The translations under genes were made by a program, and so were the position numbers. A stretch of DNA of 64,000 nucleotides from Nitrospirota bacterium (GTDB taxonomy: Bacteria; Nitrospirota; UBA9217), in assembly GCA_963790205.1 (NCBI GenBank), contig CAWBNQ010000010.1:64001-128000 (forward strand), given 5' to 3'. Below, in pieces: positions 19,203 through 40,134 of the stretch (the first letter of the stretch is position 1; every line of letters begins with the position of its first letter). Below the pieces are notes generated by a model. That model was not told the DNA's origin, ran no database searches, and was given only the letters and a program-made list of their open reading frames with translations.

Positions 19203-22200
19203 TCACTTGATCTTGACTTTGAATGTCACGGAAAAAATTGTGCTCTGGGGGCTGGGGGCCCCGTTAAACGTGCCTGAAGGCGTGATCTGAATGTTTGTCA
19301 CATTCGAGTCATAGCCGTTGGAGTCGGCGGCCGGCGTATAGCCGTAGGACACGCCGCTGTTATTGGAGTATGTTAACGAAATCCCGGTCAGTCCGCAGAC
19401 AGGCGACGCACTGCAGGTGAACCCCATGACCGGATTGCTGCAAAGGGTAGAAACGCACATGCTCGTGTTTGTCGGAATCGGATCAGTGATCACCGTGGTA
19501 TTGGCGTCCACGGAGCCGTAGCTGCTGTTCGTCACCTGGACGGTGTAAAGTATCATCGCGCCGGGAATGGCCTTCGGATTGGTCGTTCCGTTATAGGGAT
19601 CGGAATAGGTCTGGGCCGATTTAAGGACCGAGAGACTCGGCGTAATTTTGAATGTGCCGACCCTGGAGTCCGAAATCGCGCCTTCCGTGCCCTCCCATGC
19701 ACGCACGGCCGCGGACCAATTCCCTGAGGCCGCGGGCGCTGTGGGCATGAACGCATACTCGAACGTTTTCGTCGCAGCGCCTGAGTCATTGACCAGGGGC
19801 ATAGGGACATTCATTACTTTGTTGGCGCTGGTCGGGTCTGTGATCGTGAGCGTCGGGAGGCTGACGATGTCATAGCTTCCGAAGGGGTCGCTTACCACGG
19901 CGCGTACGTAGATCGTTCCGGTCGTGAAAGACGAGAGCGCCGTCCCGCCGCCGCTTAAATAACTCGCATTATAGGCAGTGACGCTGTTTATGTTGATGAC
20001 GTTTTGTGAGGGCAGGTTGACGTACGAATTGTTCGTGCCGCTCATCGGGGACACGATTACGTTTAGAGTTCCGCCGCCGGCAGTCGTGTTTTGCACGGTG
20101 AGCGCCCAATTGGAAGCACAGGTCAGCGCTGCTCCGAGTGGCAAAGTGAATGTCTTCAGGGCTGCCGTAGTTGTGAGCGCCAGGGTCTGCGTCTGCGTGA
20201 GAGTCGTGCCTCCGCATGCAAGAGTAACAACAACCGTCCTACTTCCCGCTGCATTGCTGGCCAAATAAAGATAAACAGGCACGTTGGCGTTAATCGTGTC
20301 ATTGGACTGCAAGGCCGGGTTGAGGGTCCAGACTTGGGATTGGCCCCCTTTTGTCAAGGGAACAGTGCCTGCGAGGCCGGTCGGCTTCGTCCGTGATAAT
20401 TTATGGGTTGGAGTGGAAGTATTGTCATAGAGATACAGCGGCTTGTTGCCGCTGGCCGCGTTTACCGTGACCGTGCCGGCTGCCGGTGTCCCGCCCGTGC
20501 CCGCGGAGGGCGTGATCGTGGCGGTATTGCTGATCGTAGTGCCGTTAACAGCCGAGGAAGCGATGGTCACTGTAAATACGATGGTGACGGACCCGTTCGC
20601 GGGGACGGTGATGTTGGAGAGATTGAGATAGCCCGTTCCGTTTGTACCGCCCGTTGGCAAGGAGTTGTCGGAGCACGTCGGCTCGCTTACGATCGTGAAG
20701 TTGGTCACATTCGCGGGCATATTATCCGTTACCGTCACGCCCGTGGCATTGACGCCGGCGGTCTCTTTGAGCGTAATGGTATACTGCAGAGTGTCGCCGG
20801 GACTGGCGTTGGCCAGTGTGTTGTTAAGATCGGCAACCGCCTTGGTCGAGGTGGAGAAGTTGTTGTTCACCGCGAAGCTCACCGTGGCGCTGTTGTTGTT
20901 GGAGTTGTAGTCCGTGATCGAGCCCGGTATGACGAGGCTTGCGGTGTTGGTAAGCATACTGGGCGCGGGCGCGCTTACGGTGCCCCTGATCGTATAGGTC
21001 ACATAGCCATTTAAGGGAAGGTTGGCGGTCGTGTTGATCGTGTTCCCGCTTCCCGAGGCCGCGCCGCAGGAAGAGGTGCCGTATGTTGATGATGTTGCCG
21101 TACAGGTCCAGGTAACGCCGGTGATGACCGACGGCACGGTGTCTTGGATCCCGACACCGTTCGCCGTCACGTTGTTGGGACCGGTATTAGCCGCGATCAC
21201 GGTGTATTGGATCGTGTCACCCACAGACGCGGTCGTGGTCGAACCGCTCGTTACGTCCGTGAATGTCTTGGTAATGGCGAGGTCGATCGCGGAGGTCGTG
21301 GTCTGATTGCTCACCAGGAGGTTGCGGATCTCATGATAGTTCGTGGAGCCGCCGGTGCTGGCGGCGTATCCCATCATGAGCTGTTGGGATGTCGAGATCG
21401 CGGGGAGCGCCTGGTTCGTGATCATCTGCGTATAGACAAGCGGGGAGTTGTAGCCGAATGCGACCCAGACATTGGCAACCGGATTGGGCGCCGGGCTGAT
21501 CTGTATGCGCACCTTGCGGTAATTCACGCCGGTTTGGGACGGTCGTGGCGTACCGTTGTACCACAGTGAGCCGGGGCTGCCGGAGGTGGCGATCCAGGGG
21601 TAAGAAGTTGTGCCAGTCGTTGACCCGATGGCGCCCCCGCCGAAGCCGACCACGGAGCCGCGTATTGTCACCGTGTTGGGCTGTTGTGAAGCTCCCAGGT
21701 AGCGTCCTTCACAGCCGTAGGCAAAATTACCGAACTCATCGACGCCGATCCCCACATAGCCGCCGCTGATTCCCGCTACGCTCGGTGTAACCGGATTGCA
21801 CGCAGCAGTGGACAGCTTCTGTGCATAACCGAGGGAGCCGCCGAAGGCGCCGATATTGAAGGTACTTACCCCGGCGTCGAACAGGTAGACGCTGTAGCCG
21901 TCGGCGCCGTTCCCCCCCCAAGTGGCGTAATCGAACTCGATAAGAAGCCCTGCGCTCAGGTCAAAAGTGGTGGTGTTATAGGCAAACCCGGTCTGGTTGC
22001 CCGAAGCGCTGGTCAGCCGCAGCCATCCCTGCCCCACCGGATCGATGACGCCGTTTCCGGTCAGCAAGGCGGACGTGGGATTGCCCCCCAGGACCCAGCC
22101 CGCGCTGTTCGTGTCGGTCATCGGTGCGTTGATGATGATCGCGGCAGAAGCGCCGCCCACAAGGCCCCCTCCCAGCGCAACCAGGGCCAAGGCCAGGATA

Positions 22201-22424
22201 ATGCAGGCGGCACGCAATTCTTCTCCTACCTTGTTGAAATTGAAAAAAGGTTTCATGCGGCAGGCGCTGTCTTTTTTTCGAGGATGACTCTTCATGACGA
22301 TATAATTAAAAATGTTTATTACCGTATTCGTAATCCCGGAGTCAATGAATCCAGATCGAAAACCCCATACAACTCCGATACTGCTGCTGCCTGTATAGCA
22401 GCATATCTTTTTGAATACTATCAA
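19203..22424 (-). CDS. Secreted adhesin: L-type lectin domain, two complete DUF11 domains and a C-terminal incomplete DUF11 domain (putative pilus tip)
   Basis: GWLRLT...GADGYSVYL...GIGVDEFGN...GYAASTGGSTNYHEI lectin signature. DLAITK..GDTIQYT..DTVP DUF11. Ends FKVKIK. True start probably 22256 or 22295. Confidence 0.8.
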   Translation of the reverse strand: MIVFKKICCYTGSSSIGVVWGFRSGFIDSGITNTVINIFNYIVMKSHPRKKDSACRMKPFFNFNKVGEELRAACIILALALVALGGGLVGGASAAIIINAPMTDTNSAGWVLGGNPTSALLTGNGVIDPVGQGWLRLTSASGNQTGFAYNTTTFDLSAGLLIEFDYATWGGNGADGYSVYLFDAGVSTFNIGAFGGSLGYAQKLSTAACNPVTPSVAGISGGYVGIGVDEFGNFAYGCEGRYLGASQQPNTVTIRGSVVGFGGGAIGSTTGTTSYPWIATSGSPGSLWYNGTPRPSQTGVNYRKVRIQISPAPNPVANVWVAFGYNSPLVYTQMITNQALPAISTSQQLMMGYAASTGGSTNYHEIRNLLVSNQTTTSAIDLAITKTFTDVTSGSTTTASVGDTIQYTVIAANTGPNNVTANGVGIQDTVPSVITGVTWTCTATSSTYGTSSCGAASGSGNTINTTANLPLNGYVTYTIRGTVSAPAPSMLTNTASLVIPGSITDYNSNNNSATVSFAVNNNFSTSTKAVADLNNTLANASPGDTLQYTITLKETAGVNATGVTVTDNMPANVTNFTIVSEPTCSDNSLPTGGTNGTGYLNLSNITVPANGSVTIVFTVTIASSAVNGTTISNTATITPSAGTGGTPAAGTVTVNAASGNKPLYLYDNTSTPTHKLSRTKPTGLAGTVPLTKGGQSQVWTLNPALQSNDTINANVPVYLYLASNAAGSRTVVVTLACGGTTLTQTQTLALTTTAALKTFTLPLGAALTCASNWALTVQNTTAGGGTLNVIVSPMSGTNNSYVNLPSQNVININSVTAYNASYLSGGGTALSSFTTGTIYVRAVVSDPFGSYDIVSLPTLTITDPTSANKVMNVPMPLVNDSGAATKTFEYAFMPTAPAASGNWSAAVRAWEGTEGAISDSRVGTFKITPSLSVLKSAQTYSDPYNGTTNPKAIPGAMILYTVQVTNSSYGSVDANTTVITDPIPTNTSMCVSTLCSNPVMGFTCSASPVCGLTGISLTYSNNSGVSYGYTPAADSNGYDSNVTNIQITPSGTFNGAPSPQSTIFSVTFKVKIK

Positions 22425-23083: not shown

Positions 23084-23096
23084 CAACTATTTGATT
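23084..23096 (-). promoter_or_regulatory. IHF binding site
   Basis: AATCAAATAGTTG matches WATCAA-N4-TTR, immediately upstream of the sigma-54 site. Confidence 0.6.
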
Positions 23097-23216
23097 ATAT
23101 GAACGTAATAGGTCGCGAATGAAGTGAATGAAGTCATCGAGGTAGGAATTATTACTGCTTACAAGGAAATATTCCCGTCCCAAGAGGTCTTGATGCTCGC
23201 AGGGGGCAACCCGCCC

Positions 23217-24557: not shown

Positions 24558-24727
24558 TCCCTCGTTCCCTCCCCGCCTCCTATTGAGAATCGCGACGCAC
24601 ATGCAGACGTTTAAACTATAGCACGGTGAGCGCTTCGAGGACAACCGATTTTTTTACCAAAACCGGCCTCTTGCCAAGACCCGCAAACTTTTGTATAGTA
24701 GGAGTGCAGCAAGGGAGCATAACCACG

Positions 24728-27412
24728 ATGTTCTACCTCACGCCCTATGTCATCCAGCCCCTGTTCTCGGCCGTCGTCTGCGGAGGGCTGGCCGCTTATG
24801 CCTGGCGTCGGAGAAACGTGCCGGCGGCCGTGCCCGTCTTCGCGGCCATGCTCATCGCGGCTGTCTGGTCCCTCTGCTACGCGCTCAACACCGCCGCAAC
24901 GAGCCTCGCCCTCAAGGTGTTCTTCTATCAGGCCGCCACCACCTTCGCGGCGTTCATAGGACCTGCGACGCTTGCCTTGGCGCTGGAGATCACGGGGTTC
25001 GGACAGTGGCTGACCCGCCGCAGGCTCGCCGTGCTGTGCGCCCTCTCCGGCGTCTTCGTCCTCCTGGCATGGAGCGGGGAGCATCACGCCCTTTTCCGAT
25101 ACGGGTTCTCGCTCATCCGAAACGGCCCTCTGCTGCTGCTCGACTTCAAGCAAGGGTGGGCCTGGTATATCTATAGTGCCTACGTAAACGGCCTCATGAT
25201 CGCCGCCCTGGCCCTTTTCCTGGCGCGTGCCCTGCGCAGTCCCGCCGTGTCCCGGCCCCGTTTTTACCTTCTCTTCGTGGGAACGCTCATCCCCATGCTT
25301 GTGGAAAGCCTGAATCTCACGCCAATTGAAAAGTTCAGCATGACCACCTCAACCTTCTGGTTTACCGGCTGCTGCTACATCCTGGTCATCTTCCGGCACC
25401 GGCTGTTGGAGGTGGAGCCGGTCGCCCGCGCGGCGCTCTTCGACCAATTGGAGGAACCGATCCTTGTCTTCGACGACCAGGGCACGCTGGTGGATTGCAA
25501 CCGCGCTGCGCAGAAATTGCTCAGCCCCGGAGCCGGACTCGCGAAGCTGAGCGCCGCCGCGTTCACCCGCTTTCCGATGCTCCAGTCACTGTCGAACCGG
25601 CCCCTGATCGTAATTGATGCTTTCGTAAAAGATGCCGAGGATGATCAGCGCTACTGGAGGATAAAGTCCCTGCCGCTCACAAGGGGGCTCCTCACGGTCG
25701 GGAACCTCGTTCAGCTGTACGACATCAGCGTCCTCAAGCGGAGCGAAGAGGAACGCCGTCGGGCGCACGATGCAGCGGAGGCGGCCAACCGCGCCAAATC
25801 GGTCTTTCTTGCGAACGTGAGCCATGAGCTTCGTACACCCCTGAACGCGATCATCGGCTTTACGGACCTTGTCCTCGACACTGAGTTGACCCTGGACCAG
25901 AAGAACTGTCTCGAAACCGTCAACCATTCGGCTGTGACGCTCCTTGCCATCCTGAACGACATCATGGATTTTTCAAAGATAGAGGCCGGGAAGATGGAGC
26001 TCGAAGAGGTCGATTTCGACCTGCGACAACTGGTTCACACAGCAATAAGGACGCTCTCCCTGCAGGCAGAAAATAAGGGGCTGAAACTGGAGTATTCCAT
26101 CGACCCTGACGTTCCGACGGTCTTGACGGGGGATCCCCTGAGACTGCAGCAGATTTTGCTCAACCTTGCAGGGAACGCGATCAAGTTCACTGAACAAGGC
26201 GAAGTGAAGATATCGGTACAGACCGCGCCGTCGAACCCAGAGCTTAAATTGAGGCGTCGGACAGATCGTCCGCGTTCCTCCGTAGGGATCCTTTTTAAAG
26301 TTAGCGACACCGGCATAGGAATACCCGAGGACAAACTGCGCAGTATCTTCTCGAGTTTTACGCAGGCCGACAGCTCCATTACCAGAAGATACGGAGGCAC
26401 AGGCCTGGGACTCACCATTTCGAACCAATTGGCCGGAATGATGGGAGAAGAGCTGAGGGTTGAAAGCACGCCGGGAGAAGGAAGCGTTTTTTACTTTACC
26501 GCGCGGTTCGCCCCCGGCCGCGAAGACTTTAACCAGGCAGCGAGAGGGGACGTACCTCAAACGCCGCTGCCCCATAAAAGCATGCATGTCCTTCTGGTAG
26601 AAGATAGTGCAACCAACCGGATGCTCACGGTACGCCTGCTCGAAAAACGAGGACACCTGGTGAGAACGGCGAACAGCGGGAAAGAAGCGATAGAGTTATT
26701 GGAGAGGCAAATTTTCGATGCCGTTCTCATGGACGTCCAGATGCCGGGGATGGATGGCTGTGAGGCCGCACGGATCATCAGGGACCCCCATTCGTCCGTA
26801 CTGAGGCATGATGTCCCCATTATCGCGCTGACCGCCCATGCCATGGCCGGCGATAAGGAGCGCTGCCTTGCCGCCGGCATGAACGGATATCTATCCAAAC
26901 CGCTACGGCTTGATGAATTTATCGAGGTTGTTGAGATGCATGCGGGTCGAGGTCCCCTGTCAACCATTACGCAGGCAGCGAACACGGATGTTTCGTATGA
27001 TGCTGATCACGGCCCACCCGTGCCGGGAACACAACGTGAAACGATCGGCGGAGCAATCATCACGGGGGAAACAGACCCGCTGAAAAAAATCAAAGAAGTG
27101 CTCCTCATACAGTATGAGGGCGACGAACGGCTCGTTGAGGAACTGCTCGAAGTCTTCCGGAACGAGATACCCGGCCTCGTCCGTAGGATCCGGGACGCCG
27201 TTGAAGCACGTGATTTCGCGCATCTCGCGATGCATGCCCATGCCTGTAAGAGCGCGGTAGGAGCTGTCGGGCTCACTGCTGCGAGTGAAATCGTTTCCAC
27301 AATCGAAAACGCGGCAAAAACGGAAGACATCGAGAACGCTGCCCGTAATTATGAAAAGCTCACACGGGAATTGAAAAGTTTTAAACTTCTGGCCAGTCGC
27401 CTGATACCATGA
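24728..27412 (+). CDS. Hybrid histidine kinase (7TM sensor-PAS-HisKA-HATPase-REC-Hpt)
   Basis: N-terminal TM bundle, [30 protein letters not shown] domain, HAHACKS Hpt. Confidence 0.93.
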
Positions 27413-27685
27413 AGAACATAAAAGCCCTCTGTATGCCTGGTATTCGATCCGAGAGCTGGAAGCTCTTCCGGACCAAATGCCCGGACATGCCCGATTCAAA
27501 ACGTATTTAGCCGCAGAAGGTTTTCGCCGCGCGGGAAATTCACCGGGAGAGCCCAAGATTAGCGGTGCTCACTGTGTGCAGCAAAGATGACCTGCAGTTT
27601 TAGAAGAACTGTTTTCCAGTATTTCTTCCCCGAATAAGTGATTTTTTCCCTCATCATCACCCCATAAATAAATTTTTTTTATTTA

Positions 27686-27720
27686 AAAACAACATATTAC
27701 CATAAGGCACGCCATTTGCA
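27686..27720 (+). promoter_or_regulatory. Sigma-54 promoter with adjacent IHF-like site for the DUF11 operon
   Basis: AGGCACGCCATTTGCA at 27705-27720 (GG-N10-GC), with AAACAACATATTA just upstream. Confidence 0.75.
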
Positions 27721-27972
27721 TAACTAAGCTTAATATAAACATAACACTTTATTATTATTTTTAAAAATTTTAATGAAATTGAACAGCTTTTAAAAACCTT
27801 GATAAAAATAACGCATTAGAAAACAACAAAAAAAAGTATTGCGTAAAAAAATTAATCGTTACTATATGTAACATAAAGTATTACAAATTTTTCGTGATTT
27901 TAATACAGTTTTTATGTATAACAATAAGTTATAATTTGACTAATTTTTTTGTTATCATCGGGATTTTTTTAA

Positions 27973-29172
27973 ATGAATCAAGATGGATCTGAGAAAACCC
28001 GTTATCGTCAAATAGTTTTGACATGGGACCAGGCGCTGCTTATGGGAACGTTTAATAAAATAGTCTTGACGCTCGTGCATGGGGACGCACACACGCGTAA
28101 AAAATTGCGCGTGTTGTTTGCTGCCGTCCTCTTCATCGTGTCGTTCCTGTCCGCAATAGATGCCCATGCCGTGGGCACCCCTGTCGGAACAGTGCTCGGC
28201 AGCCAGGCCACAGCGCACTACACCATAGGCACGAGCAATTATTCCACGTTGAGCAATATGACCACCTTCAGGGTGGACGACAAGGTCTCATTTACCCTGA
28301 CAGCCAGTGATTCCGCAAACGTAACGATCCTCCCCAACAGCAGGGCATACATGACGTATGTCCTGACCAACACCGGAAACGGCCCGCATGATTTTACGCT
28401 CACTCAGGCGGTCTCGGGAATTCCCACGCTGACGCCTGCAGCAGGCCCCACGTTTTATTCTGATCAGGCCGGTACGGCCGCGCTGCCGACCGACGTGAAC
28501 GCCGGCGGCCTTCCCTACCTCAGCAGCCTGGCATCCGATGGGACCAAGACGATCTACTTGTATATAACGGCTCCCTCAACGCCAACGGACGGACAGACAG
28601 CCGATTATCTCATCACTGCCGAGGCCTACCAGCCCAATAATCTCGGCACGGTAAACCCGCCGGTGAAATCTTCAACGCAAGCCGCTGCCGATGCATCTAT
28701 CGACAAAAATGCAAATTTCACGACTCAGTATGTCGTCCTGGCTGACGGGCAGGGCAACGGCGGAGATGCGCTCAGAGACGGCAAGTACGCCGAACTCGCG
28801 AAGGACGGGAGCAACAGAACCGTGGGGTTCAAAGCGCAATCAGGGTCGGTGAACGTGGCCAAAACGGCCACAGTAACGGACGAGCTCGGCGGCAGCCAGC
28901 CCATGACCGGAGCAACGATCCATTACATTCTCGCCGTGACGGTGACCGGTTCGGGGACGGCGATGAACGTGGTGATCGCGGACCCCATCCCGTTGAACAC
29001 GACCTACACTGCCGGCACGCTCAAATTGAACGGCGTCACCCTTACTGATGCGGCGGACCCTGACGCTGGAGATGTGGGCGGAACGACACCGGGGACCGTT
29101 ACGGTAAAGCTGGGGAGTTTGACGAACGCCTCGCCGGTCCAGACCGTCACGTTCGATGTGAAGATAAATTGA
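27973..29172 (+). CDS. Secreted DUF11-type protein, putative minor pilin
   Basis: Signal ending AHA, mature N-terminus VGTPVGTVLGSQATAHY. C-terminal VAKT..GATIHY..ADPIP..FDVKIN. Paralog of 31264-32388. Confidence 0.8.
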   Translation: MNQDGSEKTRYRQIVLTWDQALLMGTFNKIVLTLVHGDAHTRKKLRVLFAAVLFIVSFLSAIDAHAVGTPVGTVLGSQATAHYTIGTSNYSTLSNMTTFRVDDKVSFTLTASDSANVTILPNSRAYMTYVLTNTGNGPHDFTLTQAVSGIPTLTPAAGPTFYSDQAGTAALPTDVNAGGLPYLSSLASDGTKTIYLYITAPSTPTDGQTADYLITAEAYQPNNLGTVNPPVKSSTQAAADASIDKNANFTTQYVVLADGQGNGGDALRDGKYAELAKDGSNRTVGFKAQSGSVNVAKTATVTDELGGSQPMTGATIHYILAVTVTGSGTAMNVVIADPIPLNTTYTAGTLKLNGVTLTDAADPDAGDVGGTTPGTVTVKLGSLTNASPVQTVTFDVKIN

Positions 29173-29354
29173 TTCTGGGGAAGCTTGATTGAGAAAAATA
29201 CGGCATGCGGGGATTTTGCAATCTCCAAAAGGAGGCGGGCCATGCGAACAGGATAATTGATACAGATGAAAAAAAACGACGATCGCGCAATCTCATGCGA
29301 AGACCTCTTTATCGAACGTCTTCGCGGCAACAATCAAGTTTGAAGGAGAATACC

Positions 29355-30476
29355 ATGAGTACAATTCGTAAATCCATGTTTCCGGCCTTGCTCCTTATCG
29401 GAGTAATGGCCGTCCTGGCGCCGCAGCACGCTCTCGCGGCGGGCACCGCGTCGGGAACAATCATCAACAACAAGGCCACCATGAACTATCAGGCCGGAGG
29501 CGTTGCCCAGACGCTCATCGAGAGCTCTCCCACGGGCAACACGACCCCCGGCGCCGGGAACGGCGCCAACACGTGGTTCTACGTTGCCAACAAGGTCAAT
29601 GTCGTGGTGACGAACACCGGCAACGCCACGGTGATTCCCGGCTCGACGAAGCAGGCGCTGGTGTTCACCATTACCAACAGCGGCAACACCCCTCAGAGTT
29701 ATGCATTAGCGGCAAACCTTGTGTCCGGCCAGACCATGAGCAATGTCGCGATCTACTTGACCAATATCGCCCCTCCCACCCAGTATAATGCCGGCGACAC
29801 TCCATACGTGGATGCAACCACCTTCGGCACTATCGCTTCGGACGCAACCTACACCGTGCTGGTCGTGGCGGACGCGCCGCTCTCATTGACCAACGGCCAG
29901 ACCGGCGTATACAATCTGATCGCGACGACCACGAATGCAGGTACCACAACCGTTACTGCGCAAACAGCCGGCGCAGCCAACCTTCAGACCAACTCTCCGC
30001 TGGATGTGGTCTTTGCCGATGCCGCCGGAACCGATGACTCCGCCCGGGACGGAAAGATGTCGGCGCGAGGGACCTACACGGTTAGCGCGCCGGTGCTGAC
30101 GGTCACCAAGACCACGGCGGTCTACTCTGATCCGTTCAATGGCACCACGAACCCGAAGGCGATCCCCGGCGCGGTCATGACCTACACGATCACGATCGCG
30201 AATGGGGCCGGCGGCGCGACCGCCACGTCAGTTTCGATCGTGGACGCCGTCCCGGCGAATACGACGTTCAAAACCACGTACGTTGACGCCTCTACCACCT
30301 GCTCAGGCGCAGACGGCATCGTGGTGGGCGCGGGGGCCGGGGTCTGCAAAACCAACACGAACGATGGGGACGGCGCGGACTACAACGTATCGAATGCAGG
30401 CGCGGTGACGGTGACAGGGCTTTCGGTCGCCGCCAGCGCCAGCGCTGTTGTCAGGTTCCAGGTTACGATCAATTAA
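29355..30476 (+). CDS. Secreted DUF11-type protein, putative shaft pilin
   Basis: AAGGAG RBS, signal ending ALA, N-terminus AGTASGTIINNKATMNY. C-terminal LTVTKT..KAIPGA..VDAVP..FQVTIN. Confidence 0.82.
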   Translation: MSTIRKSMFPALLLIGVMAVLAPQHALAAGTASGTIINNKATMNYQAGGVAQTLIESSPTGNTTPGAGNGANTWFYVANKVNVVVTNTGNATVIPGSTKQALVFTITNSGNTPQSYALAANLVSGQTMSNVAIYLTNIAPPTQYNAGDTPYVDATTFGTIASDATYTVLVVADAPLSLTNGQTGVYNLIATTTNAGTTTVTAQTAGAANLQTNSPLDVVFADAAGTDDSARDGKMSARGTYTVSAPVLTVTKTTAVYSDPFNGTTNPKAIPGAVMTYTITIANGAGGATATSVSIVDAVPANTTFKTTYVDASTTCSGADGIVVGAGAGVCKTNTNDGDGADYNVSNAGAVTVTGLSVAASASAVVRFQVTIN

Positions 30477-30539
30477 GAGAAGCGATCATTCCATGATGGT
30501 CTAGTAAAAAACAGGAATGAAACAAAAAAGGAGGAACTC

Positions 30540-31034
30540 ATGAAAAGAACGGTAATCAGCATCTTGGTCGCGCTTTTGCTCCTTCCTGCCGCGGCACGGG
30601 CGCAGCAAAAGGGAAGCGTAGAACTTAAATCGATTGCGGAAGTTGAGGTCACGAAAACGAACGCAAAGGGCGAAAAGGAGGTGAAACGCGTTGACACGGC
30701 CAAGGCCAAGGTCGTGCCGGGCGATATGGTCATCTTTACGACGACCTACACGAACATCGGCAAGCAACCGGCGGACAAGGTCGTGATCACGAACCCCGTG
30801 CCCGAACATATGGATTACCTGGACAAGAGCGCCGAGGGCAAAGGAGCGAAAATAGACTTCTCCGTGGACAAGGGAAAGAGCTACGAAACTCCCGATAAGC
30901 TTATGGTCACGGACGCGCAGGGAAAGACGCGGAAGGCGCGGCCTGCGGATTATACAACCATCCGGTGGACCCTGATCAAACCCGTGCCGCCGGGCGGCGC
31001 AGGCAGCGTCTCCTTCAGGGCCAAGCTGCAATAA
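30540..31034 (+). CDS. Small secreted single DUF11-like domain protein (putative chaperone/accessory)
   Basis: Signal peptide, VVPGDMVIFTTTYTN..VVITNPVP..FSVD..IRWTL..VSFRAKLQ. Lys-rich. Confidence 0.75.
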   Translation: MKRTVISILVALLLLPAAARAQQKGSVELKSIAEVEVTKTNAKGEKEVKRVDTAKAKVVPGDMVIFTTTYTNIGKQPADKVVITNPVPEHMDYLDKSAEGKGAKIDFSVDKGKSYETPDKLMVTDAQGKTRKARPADYTTIRWTLIKPVPPGGAGSVSFRAKLQ

Positions 31035-31263
31035 AGCAGGAAATGACGTACCGTCCCGGTCACGTGGATCGGGAATGAATCAACAGAGATAATTTCGGGC
31101 ACATTGGTTGAAAAATTTTAACAAGGAGGCAATTCGTGTGAAAGGATAATCAGAGGGGAAGCATCACAAAAGAAAGTTAATAATTATGAAACGCATCTAC
31201 GGACTACGGTCCGAACAGGCACATAAAACCATATAAAACGCAGCAGAACGTAAAGGAGAAAAA

Positions 31264-32388
31264 ATGAAGACAGTAACGAAAAACATAGCATTGGCGCTGC
31301 TCCTCATCGGAGCGATGGCAATGCTGGCGCCGCAAACGGCCCTGGCGCTCGGCACCGCCGCAGGCACCCCGATAACCAACAACGCCGCCGTTAACTATAG
31401 CGTGAACGGCACGGGTCAGCCCCAGGTAAATGCCTCAGCAACCTTCAAGGTTGACGACAAGGTCAGCTTCACGTTGACTGCCCAGGATTCCGCGAACGTG
31501 ACGATCTCCCCCAGCGGCGCAGCATACCAGACCTATGTGTTGACCAATACCGGCAACGGCCCTCATGACTTTACCCTCGGTCCGGTAGTAATAGGCGGCA
31601 ATACCCTTGCGCCTGCCACGGGGCCCACCTTGTATTCCACGAATACGGGTACGGGCGGCACGCAGTTGCCTATCGATGGAACCGCCACTCTTCCGTACAT
31701 CAGCAATCTGGCGTCCGACGCGACAAGGACGGTCTATATGTACATAACCGCGTCAGCAACGCCCACTGATGGACAGTTTGCCGACTATACGGTTACCGCC
31801 ACGGCATACCAGCCCGGTAATCTCGGGAACCCGACCCCCGTCAAATCCTCAGTGCAAGCAGCAACGGATGCGACCGTTGACAAGAATTTAAATCTTAACG
31901 GTCAGGTATATGTCGTCCTGGCGGACGGACAGGGCAACGGCGGAGATGGGCTCAGGGACGGCCTGTATGCCGTCATCGCGAAAAGCGGCGGCGGCTCCAC
32001 CGTGGGCTTCCTTGTTTCGTCAGCCAATATTGCCGTCAATAAAACGGCCGCTCTCTACAGCGACCCTCTCGACGGCGTCTACAACGCTGTAACGAACAAG
32101 GCGCCGAAGGCCATTCCCGGCGCGTACATGATCTATACCCTGACCGTAACGAACAGCGGCACAGCCCCAACCAGCGCTCTCTCGATATCCGACACGCTGC
32201 CGGCGAGCCTGAGCTTTATCACTTATAACGACGGTGCGACCCCCTGCTCCAGCGGCCAGGTCGTTATCAACGGGTCCTGCTCTTCCGCCGGTGTGACCAT
32301 CTCGGGCCAGAACCTGACAGTTACCGGCTTAAGCGCTGCATCAGGCGGTGGAACAGCAATCGTCAAGTACATGGTGACCATAAACTGA
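31264..32388 (+). CDS. Secreted DUF11-type protein, putative shaft pilin
   Basis: Signal ending ALA, N-terminus LGTAAGTPITNNAAVNY. C-terminal IAVNKT..KAIPGA..SDTLP..YMVTIN. Confidence 0.82.
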   Translation: MKTVTKNIALALLLIGAMAMLAPQTALALGTAAGTPITNNAAVNYSVNGTGQPQVNASATFKVDDKVSFTLTAQDSANVTISPSGAAYQTYVLTNTGNGPHDFTLGPVVIGGNTLAPATGPTLYSTNTGTGGTQLPIDGTATLPYISNLASDATRTVYMYITASATPTDGQFADYTVTATAYQPGNLGNPTPVKSSVQAATDATVDKNLNLNGQVYVVLADGQGNGGDGLRDGLYAVIAKSGGGSTVGFLVSSANIAVNKTAALYSDPLDGVYNAVTNKAPKAIPGAYMIYTLTVTNSGTAPTSALSISDTLPASLSFITYNDGATPCSSGQVVINGSCSSAGVTISGQNLTVTGLSAASGGGTAIVKYMVTIN

Positions 32389-32434
32389 TCTCAGTCGAAA
32401 CGGCAAGAAAGAGCAAGGAAGTGAGAACGTCATT

Positions 32435-35400
32435 GTGAAAAATTTCTTCCCCATATCTGCCGCACTACGGCGCCTCTGCTTCGGCATCATTGCCGGGGCA
32501 CGCGCCCTCGTGCGCCTTTTTGCGGAAGAGCTCGAGATCAGCCGCAAAGGCGCGGAGGGACCGAGATCGTCGTCTCGGCCTTTCCGTGCCTCTGCGGCGT
32601 CTGTTTTGTCCTTTGGCCCGCGCTCACGCGCGGCATTCGCTGTTTTATGCATGTCTTTATCATTTATTCTTTTTCATTCCCCTGTCCTGTGGGCCGCCAC
32701 TCCCGCGGGAACGGTCATCAGCAACACCGCCCTGGCGAACTATACGGACGGCCCGTCGTCGGGCATCATCAGCAGGAATTCGAACACTTTTAACGTCACC
32801 ACGGTCGCGTTCCGCACACCGGCCACGATCGAGTTAATGGAGTACGCGCCAGCGTTGCCGGGCGTCCAGAGCATTCCGGTACCGGCGACAGCGTACAGCA
32901 CCAGCGGCTCGACTGCCGGGCCTTTTACGGCCCTGGGCCCTCCCCTGACTCTGAGCGGCGCGACCATCAATCTGGGAAGCCCCGTCCCGCTCGCGGACAC
33001 GGGCCTCTACCGCTCCGGAGAAGCAGTCTTTGTCCGCCTGACGGACCTAGACCAAAACACGGACCCCTCCACGGCCCAGACAGTGCTCGTGACCTTAACG
33101 GACGACCTGACCGGCGATACGGAAGTCCTCCGGCTCACGGAGACCGGGCCTAATACGGGCGTATTTACCGGTTATATCCAGACGACGGCCCAGCCCGCAG
33201 CCAATGGCAACGGACTGTTGAGCGTCTTGGATAATTCCCATATCACGGCCTCCTATGTAGACGCCGCGGATAGCACGGACAAGGCGAGCGCCAGGGCCTT
33301 GGTCAACCCGCTCTCCAAAGTGTTCAGCAGCGCTACCGGCCAACTTGTGAACGGGATCTCCATAACGCTCGTTGATGCGGCCACGAACCTGCCCGCGACG
33401 GTCTACGGCGATGATGGCGTGAGCATCTTCCCCTCGACGATCAAGACGGGTATGACCACGACGGACGGAAGCGGGAAGATCTATTCCTTCCCCAGCGGAG
33501 AGTACCAGTTCCCCTACATTCCGGCGGGCACCTACCGCCTCGCAGTGACGCCTCCGACGGGGTATAAAGCGCCGTCCACGGTCCCCACCGCAGCGCTCCA
33601 GAAACTGCCGGGCGGACCGTTCGTCATCGTTGACCCCGCTTCCCGGGGCGGTCAATTCACGGTGAGCGCCGGCTTCACGGCCCAGATCGACATCCCGGTG
33701 GATCCTGCAGGCAAGGGGCTCTTTCTGCTTAAATCCGCGGCAAATACCGACGCGGCGATCGGGGACTTTTTGCAATACCAACTGAGCGTGCAGAACACCA
33801 ATGCGACCGCGGCCGTGACGGGCGTTGTCGTGAACGACACTCTGCCCCTGGGGTTCCGCTACCGGAAAGGCTCCACCAAGATCAACCTCATTGCTGCTCC
33901 GGACCCCTCCATATCCGGCGACGGCCTTACCCTGACGTTCACGGTCGGAAGTATCCCGGCCGCGACGACGACGAACATCTCCTACGTGACGGAGATCGCC
34001 GCCGGAGCGAAAATGGGAACGGCCATCAACACCGCCGTCGCCCTGGGCAAGGGGGCGGTTTCCAATCCGGCCACGGCCTCGGTCCTGGTAAAGAACGACT
34101 TTTTCAGCGATAAGGCCTTCATCATGGGCGCCGTGCGGGTGGACGGCTGCGGAAAATCCGAGGCAGCCGAGAAGGGCGGTCTTGAAGGGGTGCGCCTCTT
34201 CATGGAAGACGGGACATACGTTGTGACCGATAAGAACGGCATGTTCCACTTCGAGGGCGTCAACCCGGGCACTCATGTCGTGCAGCTCGATCTGGACACC
34301 CTGCCGGAAAAATACGAGGTCCTGTCCTGTGAAGAAAACGACCGGTTCGCGGAAACGCCCTATTCCCAGTTTGTGGACCTCCAGGGAGGGACCCTCTGGC
34401 GCGCCGACTTCCACCTGGGCCTCAAGGCCCGGGCCGTGGGCGAGGCGGGCCTGGAACTTCGGAGCGTCTTGAAAACAGCGCAGACCGGCAGCCGCGGCAA
34501 TACGATCGAATACAGCGTTCCCCTCCGCGTGGGGTCCGTGCCGCTCCGCAACGTGCGTTTGACGGTCATGCTGCCCGAAGGTTCGACCTATCAGGCGGGG
34601 AGCAGCATGCTCAACACGGTCCCGCAGCCCGACCCGTCGAACGTGGAGAATGCTCTGACCTACCGCCTCGGGGATGTCCCCGCGGACTGGGAAGGCACAC
34701 TGCGTTTCAACGCCGCCGTCCCCTTTGCAGGGAACGCCGGCGAGCTGGCGACCAAGGCGCTCCTCATCTTCGATACCCCGCAGAAAAAGAACGAGCGGAC
34801 CCCCGTGGTGGACAACCTGCTCGTGCGGAACGTCGTGGAAGAGCGCCAGTCCGTTCCGGATGTCGTTCTGCACCCGAAGTTTGCGGTCCTGAGCGCTACC
34901 TTGAACAAGAAAGACAAGAAGGCCCTGAACCGCCTGATTAAAGATCTGAAAGAGTCAGGGGTGACACGCCTTATCGTGACGGGCCATACGGACTCCGGCA
35001 GGATCCGGGGACGGGCTGCGAAAAAATTCAAGGACAACTACGCGCTGTCCCGGGCCAGGGCCGAGACCGTGGGCCGCTACATCGCCGCGCGCCTCAAGCT
35101 CTCTCCCGAACAGGTGAACTTCATCGGAAAGGGAGCGGATGAACCCGTTGCAACGAACAAGACGGCGAAGGGACGCGCCCAGAACCGCCGCGTAGAGCTG
35201 CAGGTGGAAACCGAAAAAGTCATCGTCATGGCCGAACTGAAGAATGAAAAGGGCGCCAGCGGCGTTAAAACGGTGACAACCACGGGCCTGAGGCCGGGTG
35301 AGAAATGGACCGGACCGGAGACGAAAAAGCCCGTTCAGGACGAGAAGAAAATGCCCGAGTACACCCCTGAATGGCTCGAATCGGCGGAGCCGGGATTCGC

Positions 35401-38400
35401 GTGGCTCTGGCCCGGCGAGGGTTATTACCCGGCCATACCGGCCACGAAGATTGCCATCAAACACGACCCTGCGAAGAAGCTCAAGCTTTTCCTGAACGGA
35501 GAAGAGGTGAACGCGCTCTATCTCGACGGCACGCTCAAGCGGCAGGATGGCAAGGTCGCCGTCAGCGTCTGGCGGGGCGTGAATCTCCGGGACGGAGACA
35601 ATATTTTCGAGGCCATACAGTATGATGAAAACGGCGCCGAGGCGGGGAAACTGAAACGGGTCCTGCATTATTCCACGCCTCCGGTAAAGGCGGAGCTGGC
35701 GCCGGCGCAGTCGAAACTCGTGGCTGACGGCAAGAACCCTCCGGTCATCGCCGTCCGGCTCACGGACAAGGACGGAGCTCCCGCGCGCGAGGGGGTCATC
35801 GGCGAGTACAGCATCGATCCTCCCCGTGTTTCGCGCCAGAGCGCCGAGGACCTCCAGAAGAACCCCCTGACCGCGTCCACGAGCGATAAGTTGAAATATC
35901 AGGTGGGAGCGAACGGCATCGCCCTCATCGAACTCCAGCCCACGACGACAACCGGCGCGGCGGTGATCAAGATCCCCCTGCCGGACGGCGTCCATGAGAT
36001 CCGGGCATGGCTCACCCCGGAAAAACGCGACTGGATCCTGGTCGGCCTCGCCGATGGGACGGTCGGCTACAACGTGGTGAAAAGCAAAATGGAAAACGCG
36101 CCCTCCGGCCAGGACGACCAGATCTATAGAGACGGCCGGGTCGCGTTCTACGCCAAAGGAGCGATCAAGGGCGAGTGGCTCCTTACCATAGCCTACGACA
36201 GCGACAAGGGTGGAAATAAGGATACGAAGAGCCTCTATCAGACGATCGACCCGAACAAATACTATACCCTCTACGGCGATGCCACGGACCAGCGCGCGGA
36301 CGCGGCAAGCTCTCAGACCCTTTACGTCAAGATCGAGCGCGACCAGTTCTACGCCCTGTTCGGCGACTACGATACGGGCCTGACGGTGACCGAGCTGTCG
36401 CGGTATTCCCGCCAGTTCACGGGCCTGAAGTCGGAGCTGAAATCGGAACATTACGATTACACGCTCTACGCAAGCCAGAATACCCAGGCGTTCGTAAAGG
36501 ACGAGATCCAGGGCGACGGCACGTCCGGCCTCTACCGGCTGTCGCGGAAAAACATCATCGTCAATTCGGATTCAGTAGTCATCGAGACAAGAGACCGGTT
36601 CAGGAGTGAAGTGGTCCTCTCTTCCCAGCCGATGAGCCGCTTCGTCGATTACACCATCGATTACGACGCGGGAACCGTCTGGTTCAAGTCGCCCATATTC
36701 AACCGGGATGCCAACTTCAATCCCATTTTCATCGTCGTGCGGTATGAGTTGTTCGATACATCGGGATCTACTTATAATAATTACGGCGGACGCGGAGCGG
36801 TGCGGGTCCTGAACAACCGGCTCGAGGTCGGCGCCACGCACATCCACGAGGAACAAAACGGCGGCGCCGGAACTCTCACGGGCCTCGACACGACCGTCAA
36901 ACTGGACGACCAGACGAAGATCAAGGCCGAGATGGCGATGACGAATACCGACGAAGGCGGCGGCGCGAGCGACGGCTCCGCCTGGCTGGCGGAAGTGTCC
37001 CACCGCTCGGATAAGCTGGAGGGAAAGACATACGTGCGCGAGCAGGAACCGGGTTTCGGTCTGGGTCAGCAGAACAACAGCGAGACGGGCACCAAAAAAA
37101 CCGGCTTCGATCTTACCTACCATTTGAGCCAGTCATTCGACCTGACGAGTGACGCATTCCGTCAGGAAAACCTTACGAATAACGCGGTCAGGAACATGGC
37201 CGAGCTGCAGGGAAAGTACAGCGATAAACGCTACGAGCTTTTCAGCGGAGTGCGGTATGCGCAGGACGCGTTTGACGACGGCACAACGCAGACGTCGGAC
37301 CAGATTTTCGTCGGCGGCAGGTACCTGATGACCGAGCGCCTTTCCGTCACCTTCCGCCAGGACCAGTCGATCGGCAATGAAAATGGGAACGCCGACTTCC
37401 CGACACGGACGACCCTGGGCGCGGATTACAAGTTGACCAACAGCTCGTCGCTCTTCGCGGCCGAGGAACTGACCCATGGAGCAGAGCTGGACACGGACAC
37501 AACGCGTGTCGGACTGAGGTCGGCGCCGTGGACCGGCGGCCAGGTGAGTTCAACCGTGGAGGACCAGACCTCGGAAAACGGTGAGCGGCTCTTTTCCACC
37601 CTGGGCCTCAAGCAGACCTGGCAGGTGAGCAAACGGTGGACCGTTGACGCCGGCCTGGACCGCTCGCAAACGATCCAGCAGACGACGTCCGCGACGACCG
37701 TTGCGCCGGTGGATCAATTCAACACCAACGTGCCTCCGGCCTCGGGCGGCCCGGACTTCACCGCCCTGTCGCTCGGCGCGGGTTACAAGGCGGACAAATG
37801 GGCGTGGACGGGCCGCGTGGAAGAACGGCACTCGTCGGATGACAATAAGTTCAGCGTCCTTTCAGGCGTGAACGGAGAAGTTTCTGAAGGGCTCGGTCTT
37901 GCGGCGGGAGTGCAGGAGTTCCACTCGACATTCAATACGGGGGTCAGCACCAAGAACGATGACGTGCGTCTCGGCCTCGTTTATCGCCCGAAGAACAGCG
38001 ACTGGATCGTGCTCGACCGCCTGGATCTCCTCCGCGATGAACAAAGTAACGGTGCTTTCAACTACGACAACTGGCGCGTGGTCAACAACATGAACACGAA
38101 TTTCAAAGCTGGCCCGGACACGCAGCTTTCCCTGCAGTACGCCTGCAAATACGTGCGGGAGACCATCGATGATCTGGACTACCGGGGTTATACGGACCTC
38201 ACCGGATTGGAAGTCCGGTACGACCTGACGAAGAAATGGGACATCGGGGTGCGGGGCAGAATACTGCACTCCTGGAGTGTCGACCAGTACCACTACGGGA
38301 CCGGGCTCTCGCTGGGGTACAACTTCGTGAAAAACGTGTTGATACGCGCCGGCTATAATATCACAGGCTTCACGGACAAGGATTTCTCGAAAGCGGACTT

Positions 38401-38488
38401 CACCAGCGAAGGTCCTTTTTTCAAAATCAGCCTCAAGTTCGACCAGGTATCGGTCAGGAGCGCCGTGAAATGGATCACCGGACTGTAA
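32435..38488 (+). CDS. Giant outer-membrane protein: Ig/DUF11 domains, OmpA-like peptidoglycan-binding domain and a large C-terminal beta-barrel
   Basis: ATPAGTVISNTALANY mature N-terminus, DUF11 LLKSA..GDFLQY..NDTLP, OmpA GHTDS..LSRARA..NRRVEL, then ~800 aa of amphipathic strands. Start could be ATG 32651. Confidence 0.85.
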   Translation: MKNFFPISAALRRLCFGIIAGARALVRLFAEELEISRKGAEGPRSSSRPFRASAASVLSFGPRSRAAFAVLCMSLSFILFHSPVLWAATPAGTVISNTALANYTDGPSSGIISRNSNTFNVTTVAFRTPATIELMEYAPALPGVQSIPVPATAYSTSGSTAGPFTALGPPLTLSGATINLGSPVPLADTGLYRSGEAVFVRLTDLDQNTDPSTAQTVLVTLTDDLTGDTEVLRLTETGPNTGVFTGYIQTTAQPAANGNGLLSVLDNSHITASYVDAADSTDKASARALVNPLSKVFSSATGQLVNGISITLVDAATNLPATVYGDDGVSIFPSTIKTGMTTTDGSGKIYSFPSGEYQFPYIPAGTYRLAVTPPTGYKAPSTVPTAALQKLPGGPFVIVDPASRGGQFTVSAGFTAQIDIPVDPAGKGLFLLKSAANTDAAIGDFLQYQLSVQNTNATAAVTGVVVNDTLPLGFRYRKGSTKINLIAAPDPSISGDGLTLTFTVGSIPAATTTNISYVTEIAAGAKMGTAINTAVALGKGAVSNPATASVLVKNDFFSDKAFIMGAVRVDGCGKSEAAEKGGLEGVRLFMEDGTYVVTDKNGMFHFEGVNPGTHVVQLDLDTLPEKYEVLSCEENDRFAETPYSQFVDLQGGTLWRADFHLGLKARAVGEAGLELRSVLKTAQTGSRGNTIEYSVPLRVGSVPLRNVRLTVMLPEGSTYQAGSSMLNTVPQPDPSNVENALTYRLGDVPADWEGTLRFNAAVPFAGNAGELATKALLIFDTPQKKNERTPVVDNLLVRNVVEERQSVPDVVLHPKFAVLSATLNKKDKKALNRLIKDLKESGVTRLIVTGHTDSGRIRGRAAKKFKDNYALSRARAETVGRYIAARLKLSPEQVNFIGKGADEPVATNKTAKGRAQNRRVELQVETEKVIVMAELKNEKGASGVKTVTTTGLRPGEKWTGPETKKPVQDEKKMPEYTPEWLESAEPGFAWLWPGEGYYPAIPATKIAIKHDPAKKLKLFLNGEEVNALYLDGTLKRQDGKVAVSVWRGVNLRDGDNIFEAIQYDENGAEAGKLKRVLHYSTPPVKAELAPAQSKLVADGKNPPVIAVRLTDKDGAPAREGVIGEYSIDPPRVSRQSAEDLQKNPLTASTSDKLKYQVGANGIALIELQPTTTTGAAVIKIPLPDGVHEIRAWLTPEKRDWILVGLADGTVGYNVVKSKMENAPSGQDDQIYRDGRVAFYAKGAIKGEWLLTIAYDSDKGGNKDTKSLYQTIDPNKYYTLYGDATDQRADAASSQTLYVKIERDQFYALFGDYDTGLTVTELSRYSRQFTGLKSELKSEHYDYTLYASQNTQAFVKDEIQGDGTSGLYRLSRKNIIVNSDSVVIETRDRFRSEVVLSSQPMSRFVDYTIDYDAGTVWFKSPIFNRDANFNPIFIVVRYELFDTSGSTYNNYGGRGAVRVLNNRLEVGATHIHEEQNGGAGTLTGLDTTVKLDDQTKIKAEMAMTNTDEGGGASDGSAWLAEVSHRSDKLEGKTYVREQEPGFGLGQQNNSETGTKKTGFDLTYHLSQSFDLTSDAFRQENLTNNAVRNMAELQGKYSDKRYELFSGVRYAQDAFDDGTTQTSDQIFVGGRYLMTERLSVTFRQDQSIGNENGNADFPTRTTLGADYKLTNSSSLFAAEELTHGAELDTDTTRVGLRSAPWTGGQVSSTVEDQTSENGERLFSTLGLKQTWQVSKRWTVDAGLDRSQTIQQTTSATTVAPVDQFNTNVPPASGGPDFTALSLGAGYKADKWAWTGRVEERHSSDDNKFSVLSGVNGEVSEGLGLAAGVQEFHSTFNTGVSTKNDDVRLGLVYRPKNSDWIVLDRLDLLRDEQSNGAFNYDNWRVVNNMNTNFKAGPDTQLSLQYACKYVRETIDDLDYRGYTDLTGLEVRYDLTKKWDIGVRGRILHSWSVDQYHYGTGLSLGYNFVKNVLIRAGYNITGFTDKDFSKADFTSEGPFFKISLKFDQVSVRSAVKWITGL
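32541..32603. repeat. Palindromic ~9-nt-arm element in the leader or N-terminus of the giant gene
   Basis: gccgcaaaggcgcggaggg ... ttccgtgcctctgcggc. Same family as 15127 and 15874. Confidence 0.55.
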
Positions 38489-38555
38489 CCGTGATCGTGA
38501 AAATATGGTACTGCAACGCTATCGCAAAGCTATCAAGCACGATTACGTATGAAGT

Positions 38556-39931
38556 CACATCTGTCCAAAATAGATTTTGAATAATTGAAGGGGAAGCCTC
38601 ACTTCAGGTATAGTAGGTTTGTCGAGGACCTAACTTTACTGAAGGAGGACATCCCCGTGAACAAGTTTAGCAGTATCTTCGGACAGATTCTACAGATATT
38701 TTCGCACCAGGAGTTTTATCGTGCGGTGCGGGAGACACAGGCAGAGAAAGGCGTAAAAGGATTTGGTTGCTGGGGCCAGTTCGTGGCCATGCTATTCTGT
38801 CAGCTGGGACAAGCGCATTCGCTTCGAGAGATCTGCGGCGGATTGGCTACCTGCTTCGGCAAGCTCAAACATCTCGGGATAGATGCTGCTCCCAAGCGTT
38901 CCACCTTGGCGTATGCCAACGCGCATCGGCCATGGCAATTGTATCAGAAGGTTTTTTATCAGTTGTTGGCAAAGTGCCGAGTCCTGGCGCACGGAAAGAA
39001 GCCGTTCCGGTTTAAGAACAAGCTGTTCAGCCTCGATGCGACACTGATCGAACTCTGTGTGACCCTGTTTGACTGGGCAAAATACCGGCAGACAAAAGGA
39101 GCGGTCAAGCTTCACCTGTTATTGGATCATGAGGGATATCTTCCGGTTTTCGCTACGATGACTGAAGGGAATGTGCACGAAGTAAACATCGCGCACACGC
39201 TGAAGTTCCCCAAGGGTTCCATTTTGGCGATTGACCGCGGATATGTCGATTATGAACAATTCGCACGCTGGACGGAGACCGGGATATTCTTCGTAACGAA
39301 AGAGAAGGATAATGCCGCCTTCCGGATCATCGAAAGACGAGAGGTGCCCGAGAATCGGAACATCATCAAAGACCAGCTCATTGAGCTGACGGGCTACGAA
39401 TCGATCAAGAAGTGCCCGCATACGTTGCGACGGGTAGAGGTCTGGGACGCAGAAAATGAACGTATTATCGTTCTGTGGACGAACCATCTCACCTTTGGCG
39501 CGACGACCATAGCGAGCATTTACAAGGACCGCTGGCAGATTGAGGTATTTTTCAAGACGATCAAGCAGAATCTGAAGATCAAAACATTCGTTGGGACGAG
39601 TCGGAACGCTTTATTGGTACAGATTTGGACAGCATTAATCGCTATCCTGGTGTTGAAGTACTTGAAGTTCCGATCCACACTCGGATGGTCGTTGTCGAAT
39701 CTGGTTGCCATGCTTCGTTATAATCTCTTCACCTATAGGGATTTATGGACATGGTTGGATAATCCATTTGAAACGCCGCCTATTGTGCCATTTGCGGAGC
39801 AACTGGTAATGAGTTATCGGTAATTGGACAGCAGAATAAGGAACCTGAATCCGAGATGATGGATTTGTCTGTCTAAAAGCATTGATTGGCGGGGTGTGGA
39901 TCAGGAAATTAGATTATCTTGGACAGCAATG
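38556..39931 (+). mobile_element. IS4-family insertion sequence with a 9-bp target-site duplication
   Basis: Imperfect terminal inverted repeats cacatctgtccaaaata / tatcttggacagcaatg. GTATGAAGT at 38547-38555 and 39932-39940. Confidence 0.92.
38585..39823 (+). CDS. IS4-family DDE transposase (DUF4372-type N-terminus)
   Basis: SLREI, RSTLAYAN, LDAT, KLHL, DRGY, YKDRWQIEVFFKTIKQ. Likely GTG start near 38657. Confidence 0.95.
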   Translation: MKGKPHFRYSRFVEDLTLLKEDIPVNKFSSIFGQILQIFSHQEFYRAVRETQAEKGVKGFGCWGQFVAMLFCQLGQAHSLREICGGLATCFGKLKHLGIDAAPKRSTLAYANAHRPWQLYQKVFYQLLAKCRVLAHGKKPFRFKNKLFSLDATLIELCVTLFDWAKYRQTKGAVKLHLLLDHEGYLPVFATMTEGNVHEVNIAHTLKFPKGSILAIDRGYVDYEQFARWTETGIFFVTKEKDNAAFRIIERREVPENRNIIKDQLIELTGYESIKKCPHTLRRVEVWDAENERIIVLWTNHLTFGATTIASIYKDRWQIEVFFKTIKQNLKIKTFVGTSRNALLVQIWTALIAILVLKYLKFRSTLGWSLSNLVAMLRYNLFTYRDLWTWLDNPFETPPIVPFAEQLVMSYR

Positions 39932-40134
39932 GTATGAAGTAAACAATGGAAGGCCACTGCAATGGGAAAACGGGCGGGACCGGCATCGCAACGCGCAGAC
40001 CTGCTTCCCATTCCGGCCTTGCCCTCACCCGTCCGCTGACAGGCATCGTTGCAGTCCTTTGTTTCAAAATTGCGGTTACTGCGATGGAACATTCAGTGAA
40101 CTTGTCAGATTCGGAACGATTTCGTGAACGACGT

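Follow-up and report, generated by a model that had tools for sequence, protein, structure and literature searches.

A predicted 36–38-strand outer-membrane barrel fused to a putative pilin-completing hairpin: likely anchor and possible export pore of a pilus in a Nitrospirota bacterium

In a 64,000-nucleotide stretch of DNA from a Nitrospirota bacterium (lineage UBA9217; GenBank assembly GCA_963790205.1, contig CAWBNQ010000010.1, positions 64,001 to 128,000; hereafter the window), a single open frame on the plus strand encodes, counted from its first GTG, a protein of 2017 amino acids (aa) that we term the base protein. A first-pass annotation of the window had proposed that this outer-membrane protein may be both secretion pore and pilus base; the frame is real, and the motifs quoted for it were all located (ADGK at residue 1097, IAVRLTDKDG at 1105 and VDYTIDYDAGTV at 1404). 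The gene and the parts of its product are, in window coordinates:

32435..38488, plus strand: base protein gene, comprising donor hairpin, immunoglobulin (Ig)-like stalk, periplasmic module and giant outer-membrane barrel
32696..32809, plus strand: N-terminal donor hairpin, residues 88-125, after the probable signal-peptide cut, with Asn97 as predicted isopeptide partner
32813..34429, plus strand: stalk of four beta-sandwich domains, residues 127-665, including an intact DUF11/CLIPPER domain (∼426-553) and an SdrD_B-like domain
34880..35188, plus strand: OmpA-like peptidoglycan-binding domain, residues 816-918, set within one hairpin of a DUF11-like domain that is degenerate; not present in all family members
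35357..36019, plus strand: two Ig-like domains, residues 975-1195, the second carrying the invasin/Big_1-like ADGK..IAVRLTDKDG; likely periplasmic
36035..38440, plus strand: predicted transmembrane beta-barrel, 36 strands modelled, 38 if a hairpin is present at 1699-1731
36485..36754, plus strand: inserted small beta domain, residues 1351-1440, with VDYTIDYDAGTV, between barrel strands 7 and 8; common to SprA

The barrel domain (residues 1181-2017) was modelled by AlphaFold2 from a 92-sequence alignment as one barrel, with a predicted local distance difference test (pLDDT) score of 81.7 and a predicted template-modelling score (pTM) of 0.81. The model contains 36 membrane-type strands, 7 ahead of the inserted domain and 29 behind it; we give the count as 36-38, since one unmodelled segment looks like two more. 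Mean-field direct coupling analysis (DCA) of 357 sequences (271 effective at 80%) backed 31 of the 38 pairings between adjacent strands, which scored higher than the 95th percentile of a background of 780 non-neighbouring pairs. The unusually large barrel that the first-pass annotation inferred is what the model predicts, as a single barrel, and it would be among the largest known outer-membrane barrels. Its C-alpha diameter, by geometric formula, is 64-70 Å, versus 43-46 Å for 24 strands. In the accessible part of 10.64898/2026.03.07.710327, SprA is termed the largest known barrel, and barrels of >26 strands are left out.

No Pfam family matched over 1181-2017, neither phmmer nor hidden Markov models picked out a relative of the barrel among PDB sequences, and a scan of the genome contigs with a single sequence gave no match. 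Foldseek returned generic matches only, with template-modelling (TM) scores of at most 0.27: SlpA (30 strands) was best (TM 0.26, root-mean-square deviation (rmsd) 20), MtrB was also matched, and SprA ranked 14-45 (TM 0.15-0.20, rmsd 30-34). A second look with the VIA structure search put FimD on top (Z 16.8, rmsd 7.8, 341 residues aligned); the FimD alignment covers only part of the barrel, at rmsd 7.8-16.7, and SprA lay outside the best 50 matches of both VIA searches, which excludes nothing. The kinship with ushers that the FimD match suggested was rejected, as HHalign gave at most 2.9% against 14 ushers, nothing above control level; the usher family PF00577 likewise had no Pfam match in the base protein. 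A reading as two barrels was also rejected: porins could be fitted no further than as arcs (rmsd 9-15), and the alignments of small barrels run over both the first and the last strands. The translocator barrel of autotransporters and invasins (type V secretion) has 12 strands; type V membership was dismissed, there being no family match on 1181-2017 and at least 36 strands.

The first-pass annotation had likened a motif in the barrel strands to one in SprA, the translocon of type 9 secretion. The likeness extends to a whole domain common to SprA; the motif itself sits in the insert, not in a membrane strand. For comparison we used 31 proteins above the cut-off of the SprA model TIGR04189, all from one phylum, some partial and none from Bacteroidota. 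The motif DY-x-I-D-Y-x-x-G is present in 29 of these 31, in 316 of 357 family members and in none of 14 ushers, and the family profile aligns with 26 SprA segments at 94-95% (HHalign, E 1.4e-7) over 96 columns, which span the insert and the strands that follow it. Kinship of the barrel wall with SprA was rejected: the strands ahead of the insert align at E 0.02-0.14, but control windows reached E 0.0027, so the insert alone counts as a link. TIGR04189 did not match residues 1181-2017. By sequence, then, the link to SprA is a shared domain, not family membership.

The organism's own genome (98% complete) contains 0 matches to TIGR04189, a model positive in 61/61 genomes of another phylum. Nor were PorV (PF19572, detected in the two positive-control genomes and in a named control), an usher or a PapD-family chaperone (PF00345, model positive in 2 controls) found there. 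A third family, of ∼1150-aa barrels, was matched in 81/81 genomes of the phylum that supplied the SprA set. It aligns with the base family over 164 columns that include strands 4-7 (HHalign 97.8%, E 6.8e-13) and with SprA over the insert (96.8%). It bridges the two and may be an unrecognised type 9 component. One such barrel lies at L138:3609-7088 (G301:C19), ∼7 kb from a PorV gene in that genome.

DCA couples the insert to two conserved loops (barrel-fragment residues 211-214 with 367-375, and 223-227 with 92-94), as would be expected of a latched plug or cap, for which the insert is a candidate. In the ESM Atlas, residues 1290-1480 gave an SprA_N cluster at 0.88, a lead only. The insert also resembles phage tail and neck domains (8CK1, Z 8.5, rmsd 2.8; 8HQO, Z 8.4, rmsd 1.6; 7RFV, Z 7.9), so it may be a mobile module; a tblastn search of the insert against phages returned nothing.

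The N-terminal half was modelled (pLDDT 87.4, pTM 0.42) as a hairpin standing free, followed by the four domains of the stalk, a degenerate DUF11 domain into which the OmpA domain is inserted, and two Ig domains. Foldseek of this multi-domain half was uninformative. Within the stalk, Pfam places DUF11 at 432-536, above cut-off (27.9 bits), and SdrD_B at 573-620, below it. The internal DUF11 domain superposes on the CLIPPER structure 9IFR (Z 14.5, rmsd 2.2, 114 aligned), and its triad is kept in nearly all base proteins (Lys433 67/67, Asp468 67/67, Asn532 65/67). With a CnaA-like fold and a Lys/Asp/Asn triad, domain 426-553 is a CLIPPER/DUF11 domain; the bond itself is predicted. The OmpA domain matches PF00691 above cut-off (55.5 bits, E 7.7e-15), superposes on 3TD3 (Z 16.5, rmsd 2.2, 120 aligned) and carries GHTD at 850-853 and LSxxRA at 871-876, from which peptidoglycan binding is predicted. 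The peptidoglycan tether of the earlier proposal thus has a domain to act through, but an optional one, present in 72/113 homologs and in 53/66 full-length homologs; at an Acinetobacter locus OmpA is encoded by a separate gene. The region of the invasin-like motif is modelled as an all-beta Ig domain, but the Invasin_D3 and Big_1 matches there are weak (E 0.013 and 0.12).

The start of the gene is ambiguous, the database call (P0151, 1945 aa) beginning at Met73, position 32651. A long basic leader lies ahead of the signal peptide at 32435-32695 and, across 59 homologs, has a median length of ∼68 aa from the first in-frame start; it may be an extended signal peptide or an effect of start calling. 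Contigs of a ∼99% identical strain (run X1) cover the gene in two overlapping pieces, 22199-36356 and 36327-38546, and among the indels listed against that strain a single one, an in-frame 3-nucleotide loss, falls inside it, so the gene is not an assembly artefact. An IS4-family element occupies 38547-39931, 58 nucleotides past the stop codon. In runs X1, X2 and X4, contigs connect 38546 to 39932, with 9 ambiguous letters, so the insertion is recent, probably with a 9-bp target duplication. A promoter scan gave nothing usable. Further downstream an open reading frame (ORF) at 49070-50383 has many CxxCH motifs and on inspection looks like a multiheme cytochrome.

The genes ahead of the base gene, of which the nearest encodes the pilin that the hairpin is predicted to complete, are:

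31264..32388, plus strand: pilin-like subunit C, 374 aa, with donor hairpin (Asn39), middle domain and truncated acceptor domain (Lys260, Asp310)
30540..31034, plus strand: small acceptor-only DUF11 protein, 164 aa, candidate non-covalent donor-capping chaperone
29205..30476, plus strand: pilin-like subunit B, with donor and acceptor
27973..29172, plus strand: pilin-like subunit A, with donor and acceptor
19203..22424, minus strand: tip-adhesin candidate, 1073 aa, with a weak L-type lectin domain, DUF11 repeats and a C-terminal acceptor (Lys935, Asp981) but no donor

The lectin match of the adhesin is below cut-off (E 1.9e-5). Its gene is inverted here and lies 5.5 kb beyond the operon; in relatives it is usually the first gene of the operon. 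Between it and the pilin genes are a sigma-54 response regulator (23217-24644, minus) and a seven-transmembrane hybrid kinase (24626-27412, plus), and regulator-like ORFs precede the cluster at two other loci (L042 and L090) as well.

The pilin C-termini match the first three quarters of an intact DUF11 domain (HHalign 97.5%), ending before the Asn strand, and the N-termini of base proteins and pilins are alike (97.1%); short donor profiles gave no significant match to the end of intact DUF11 (E 0.01-0.03). Donor and acceptor residues were counted with L034 (a duplicate of L053), the six distant loci L045-L050 and ORFs longer or shorter than set limits excluded. Pilins keep the Lys in 81/83, the Asp in 83/83 and the donor Asn in 75/83; adhesins keep the Lys in 37/39 and the Asp in 36/39; base proteins keep Asn97 in 60/62. 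In the small protein the Lys position holds Ser or another residue, and the Asp position holds Asn in 47/68. A strict donor expression is matched by 44/67 base proteins and 58/83 pilins, by none of the 39 adhesins and none of the 68 small proteins; acceptor ends are found in 80/83 pilins, 65/68 small proteins and 32/39 adhesins, and in none of the 67 base proteins. These counts show a split CLIPPER domain, with acceptors in the adhesin, the pilins and the small protein and donors in the pilins and the base protein.

Structure prediction is consistent with this pairing. When base residues 87-292 were modelled with pilin C residues 64-374 by ESMFold2, the complex scored 0.69, versus 0.00 for the best of 3 controls; the mark for this score is reached by 116/157 solved pairs and 2/215 mismatched pairs. 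At least 95% of contacts agree between runs, the partner pLDDT is 86 and the interface consists of fragment residues 9-33. In the model the hairpin pairs with pilin C strands 258-260 and 306-310, and pilin Lys260 and Asp310 contact fragment residues 12-13, adjoining Asn97. By this prediction the base hairpin supplies what the truncated DUF11/CLIPPER domain of the pilin encoded upstream lacks. The first-pass annotation had given the protein a donor strand of its own; a donor element is indeed predicted to bind pilin, in the form of a two-strand hairpin (∼95-119).

The family comprises 3385 clusters at E 0.001, from Nitrospirota, Desulfobacterota-type deltaproteobacteria, Pseudomonadota and cyanobacteria, and 1391 at 1e-30; it occurs in 55 of 301 genomes of the phylum and on 26 plasmid records from Alpha-, Beta- and Gammaproteobacteria and cyanobacteria. 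Among cultured bacteria, Geomonas sp. Red32 and Geomobilimonas luticola are carriers. The operon is kept across many phyla. Of the 59 loci whose upstream sequence extends for at least 3 kb, 57 have the small gene, 43 close pilins and 33 the adhesin; most of the 16 without close pilins have divergent pilin-like ORFs, judged by eye. At four distant loci (L046, L047, L050, L170) a giant DUF11 adhesin gene lies directly before a separate barrel gene bearing a signal peptide. These adhesins, of 1500-3500 aa, end in the same DUF11-SdrD_B module as the base protein, and in L048 the adhesin is fused to the barrel; Ig-chain cargo thus accompanies the barrel also at loci in which donor pilins were not detected.

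The adhesins of all five loci share a conserved ∼95-aa tail after SdrD_B that is weakly OmpA-fold-like and a candidate periplasmic retention domain; its identity as degenerate OmpA was not accepted (HHalign 4.8%, E 0.008, best of 8 domains, no Pfam support) and is kept as a lead. A genome can hold up to three barrel paralogs of differing architecture (G042: C1, C9, C11), and L054 has a second cluster downstream. In L025, L073 and L128 the base gene is fragmented or frameshifted, through decay or assembly errors.

We think it somewhat probable that the base protein anchors an undescribed pilus in the outer membrane and serves as its export platform, with the barrel passing folded subunits and the hairpin completing the last pilin and locking the fibre to the cell. 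The models make the anchor likely; that the barrel is also the export pore is possible, the case for subunit passage being circumstantial and drawn from the size of the barrel, from the searches that found no usher, PapD, SprA or PorV, and from the natural split adhesin and barrel loci. Subunits would cross the inner membrane by their signal peptides, and the small Lys-less protein would cap donors reversibly. The adhesin would exit first, pilins would then be added at the base with a Lys-Asn isopeptide bond forming at each joint, and the base protein's own donor would close the chain. The stalk would end up threaded through the barrel lumen: the OmpA domain must stay periplasmic while the hairpin is displayed, so the chain itself would cross the lumen, leaving the OmpA/Ig module on the periplasmic side, where it would be an optional tether to the cell wall. 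More tentatively, this may be a widespread, unnamed secretion and assembly system in which a single polypeptide combines the roles of pore, terminator and tether to the cell wall, with a barrel of 36-38 strands at least as large as the largest solved, distantly related to SprA and working without PorV, and extruding a pilus that is cross-linked by autocatalytic isopeptide bonds between its subunits and chaperoned by a catalytically dead acceptor.

Several points weigh against this account. In the barrel model, fragment residues 519-551 (1699-1731 of the protein) are two likely strands left unmodelled, pLDDT falling below 50 at 518-536; 7 of the 38 strand pairings lie within DCA noise, and closure of the barrel is weakly supported, with a score of 3.7 that falls above the 95th but below the 99th percentile (the closing pair ranks second for the last strand and fifth for the first). 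On the SprA side, the strands ahead of the insert are colinear with SprA but align no better than control windows, the insert alone scores 10.2 bits (E 0.073) against the TIGR04189 cut-off of 200 bits, and its fold is found in phage tail proteins too. The pass of the base-pilin complex may reflect likeness to the solved intact domain 9IFR, as split-domain halves tend to pass. As to mechanism, a tethered donor beside the pore could halt growth at once unless masked, a lumen filled by the protein's own stalk may block further subunits, and terminator versus primer is argued by analogy only.

The first-pass annotation had the protein prime assembly with its donor strand, and on that rather unlikely alternative the stalk reaches the surface before the pilins, the initial pilin is caught by its donor, later pilins leave through the barrel and add distally, and the adhesin caps the fibre. 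It draws on the same anatomy and the same predicted base-pilin complex; an acceptor-like capping protein that guards donors suits growth at an exposed donor, and a barrel of 64-70 Å might have room for the stalk next to a passing subunit. Released subunits would, however, have to find the tip, and type 1 pili, according to the accessible part of PMC12122975, grow at the base, FimI being added last to terminate assembly and anchor the rod. Priming is thus not established: with a donor-only base, an acceptor-only adhesin and the FimI analogy, tip-first growth closed by the base donor is favoured, and anchoring or termination fits, by that analogy, at least as well as priming.

Somewhat less probable again is that the protein serves as anchor only, its barrel showing its own stalk while pilins and adhesin exit elsewhere, such as by type II secretion, and attach to it from outside, each perhaps a single time. 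The presence of one to three different pilin genes per locus could mean such a defined short chain, but 36-38 strands far exceed an anchor's need, the barrel is paired with separately encoded giant adhesins at the four split loci, and no other transporter appeared as a conserved neighbour in ORF surveys that sought only homologs of the cluster's own proteins. That the whole N-terminal part stays periplasmic, linking outer membrane to cell wall in an SlpA/OmpM-like envelope tether or solute porin, is very improbable: the OmpA domain and the top Foldseek rank of SlpA, poor as that match is, speak for it, and the tip protein with its lectin-like domain, the isopeptide residues, which typify surface proteins (accessible part of 10.1101/2025.04.25.650565), the patchy spread in the phylum and the optional nature of the OmpA domain speak against it.

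If the favoured reading, of anchor and export platform, is true, the locus defines a new class of pilus, bacteria with two membranes have a further way to export folded proteins, and SprA gains kin beyond type 9 secretion, so that its origin could be tested. Split CLIPPER pairs of this kind offer candidates for natural tag/catcher systems in protein ligation.

We found no description of this pilus system in the literature covered, most subscription journals lying outside that coverage. Compared with chaperone-usher pili (FimD/PapC, with FimH at the tip and FimI as terminator), it has in common an outer-membrane barrel with an inserted domain near its start and, by prediction, incomplete Ig subunits completed by a neighbour's N-terminus and an acceptor-only tip. 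It differs in a barrel of 36-38 rather than 24 strands, a two-strand donor, a CLIPPER fold with a predicted covalent lock, a terminal donor fused to the barrel, and a helper that is acceptor-like, not a donor like PapD. FimD passes folded subunits through ∼36-44 Å (PMC12122975, accessible part). Like SprA/Sov (TIGR04189; 6H3I, 8GL6), the base protein is predicted to have a single-chain barrel, of ∼36 strands there and 36-38 here, and the two share a ∼90-aa inserted DY-x-I-D-Y-x-x-G domain followed by a return to the barrel, the preceding strands being weakly colinear. Unlike SprA/Sov, its barrel is 800 aa versus ∼2100-2400 aa, which leaves no room for SprA's large cap, and carries an Ig stalk, a donor hairpin and an OmpA domain on the same chain; it scores far below the family cut-off, and no PorV was found. 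CLIPPER/DUF11 fibrillar adhesins (PF01345; 9IFR) have the same fold and Lys-Asp-Asn triad, but the bond described in the accessible part of 10.1101/2025.04.25.650565 lies within one domain, whereas here the domain is split between chains; that part describes neither barrel nor polymer, though the paper's supplements could list such proteins. DUF11 is mentioned for archaeal proteins only in the accessible part of PMC10787695. The archaeal thread (PMC9715654) and Clostridium BsaA (10.1101/2024.11.04.621531), as presented in the accessible parts of those sources, have other folds, no outer membrane and no barrel platform, but they too combine donor-strand complementation with intermolecular isopeptide bonds.

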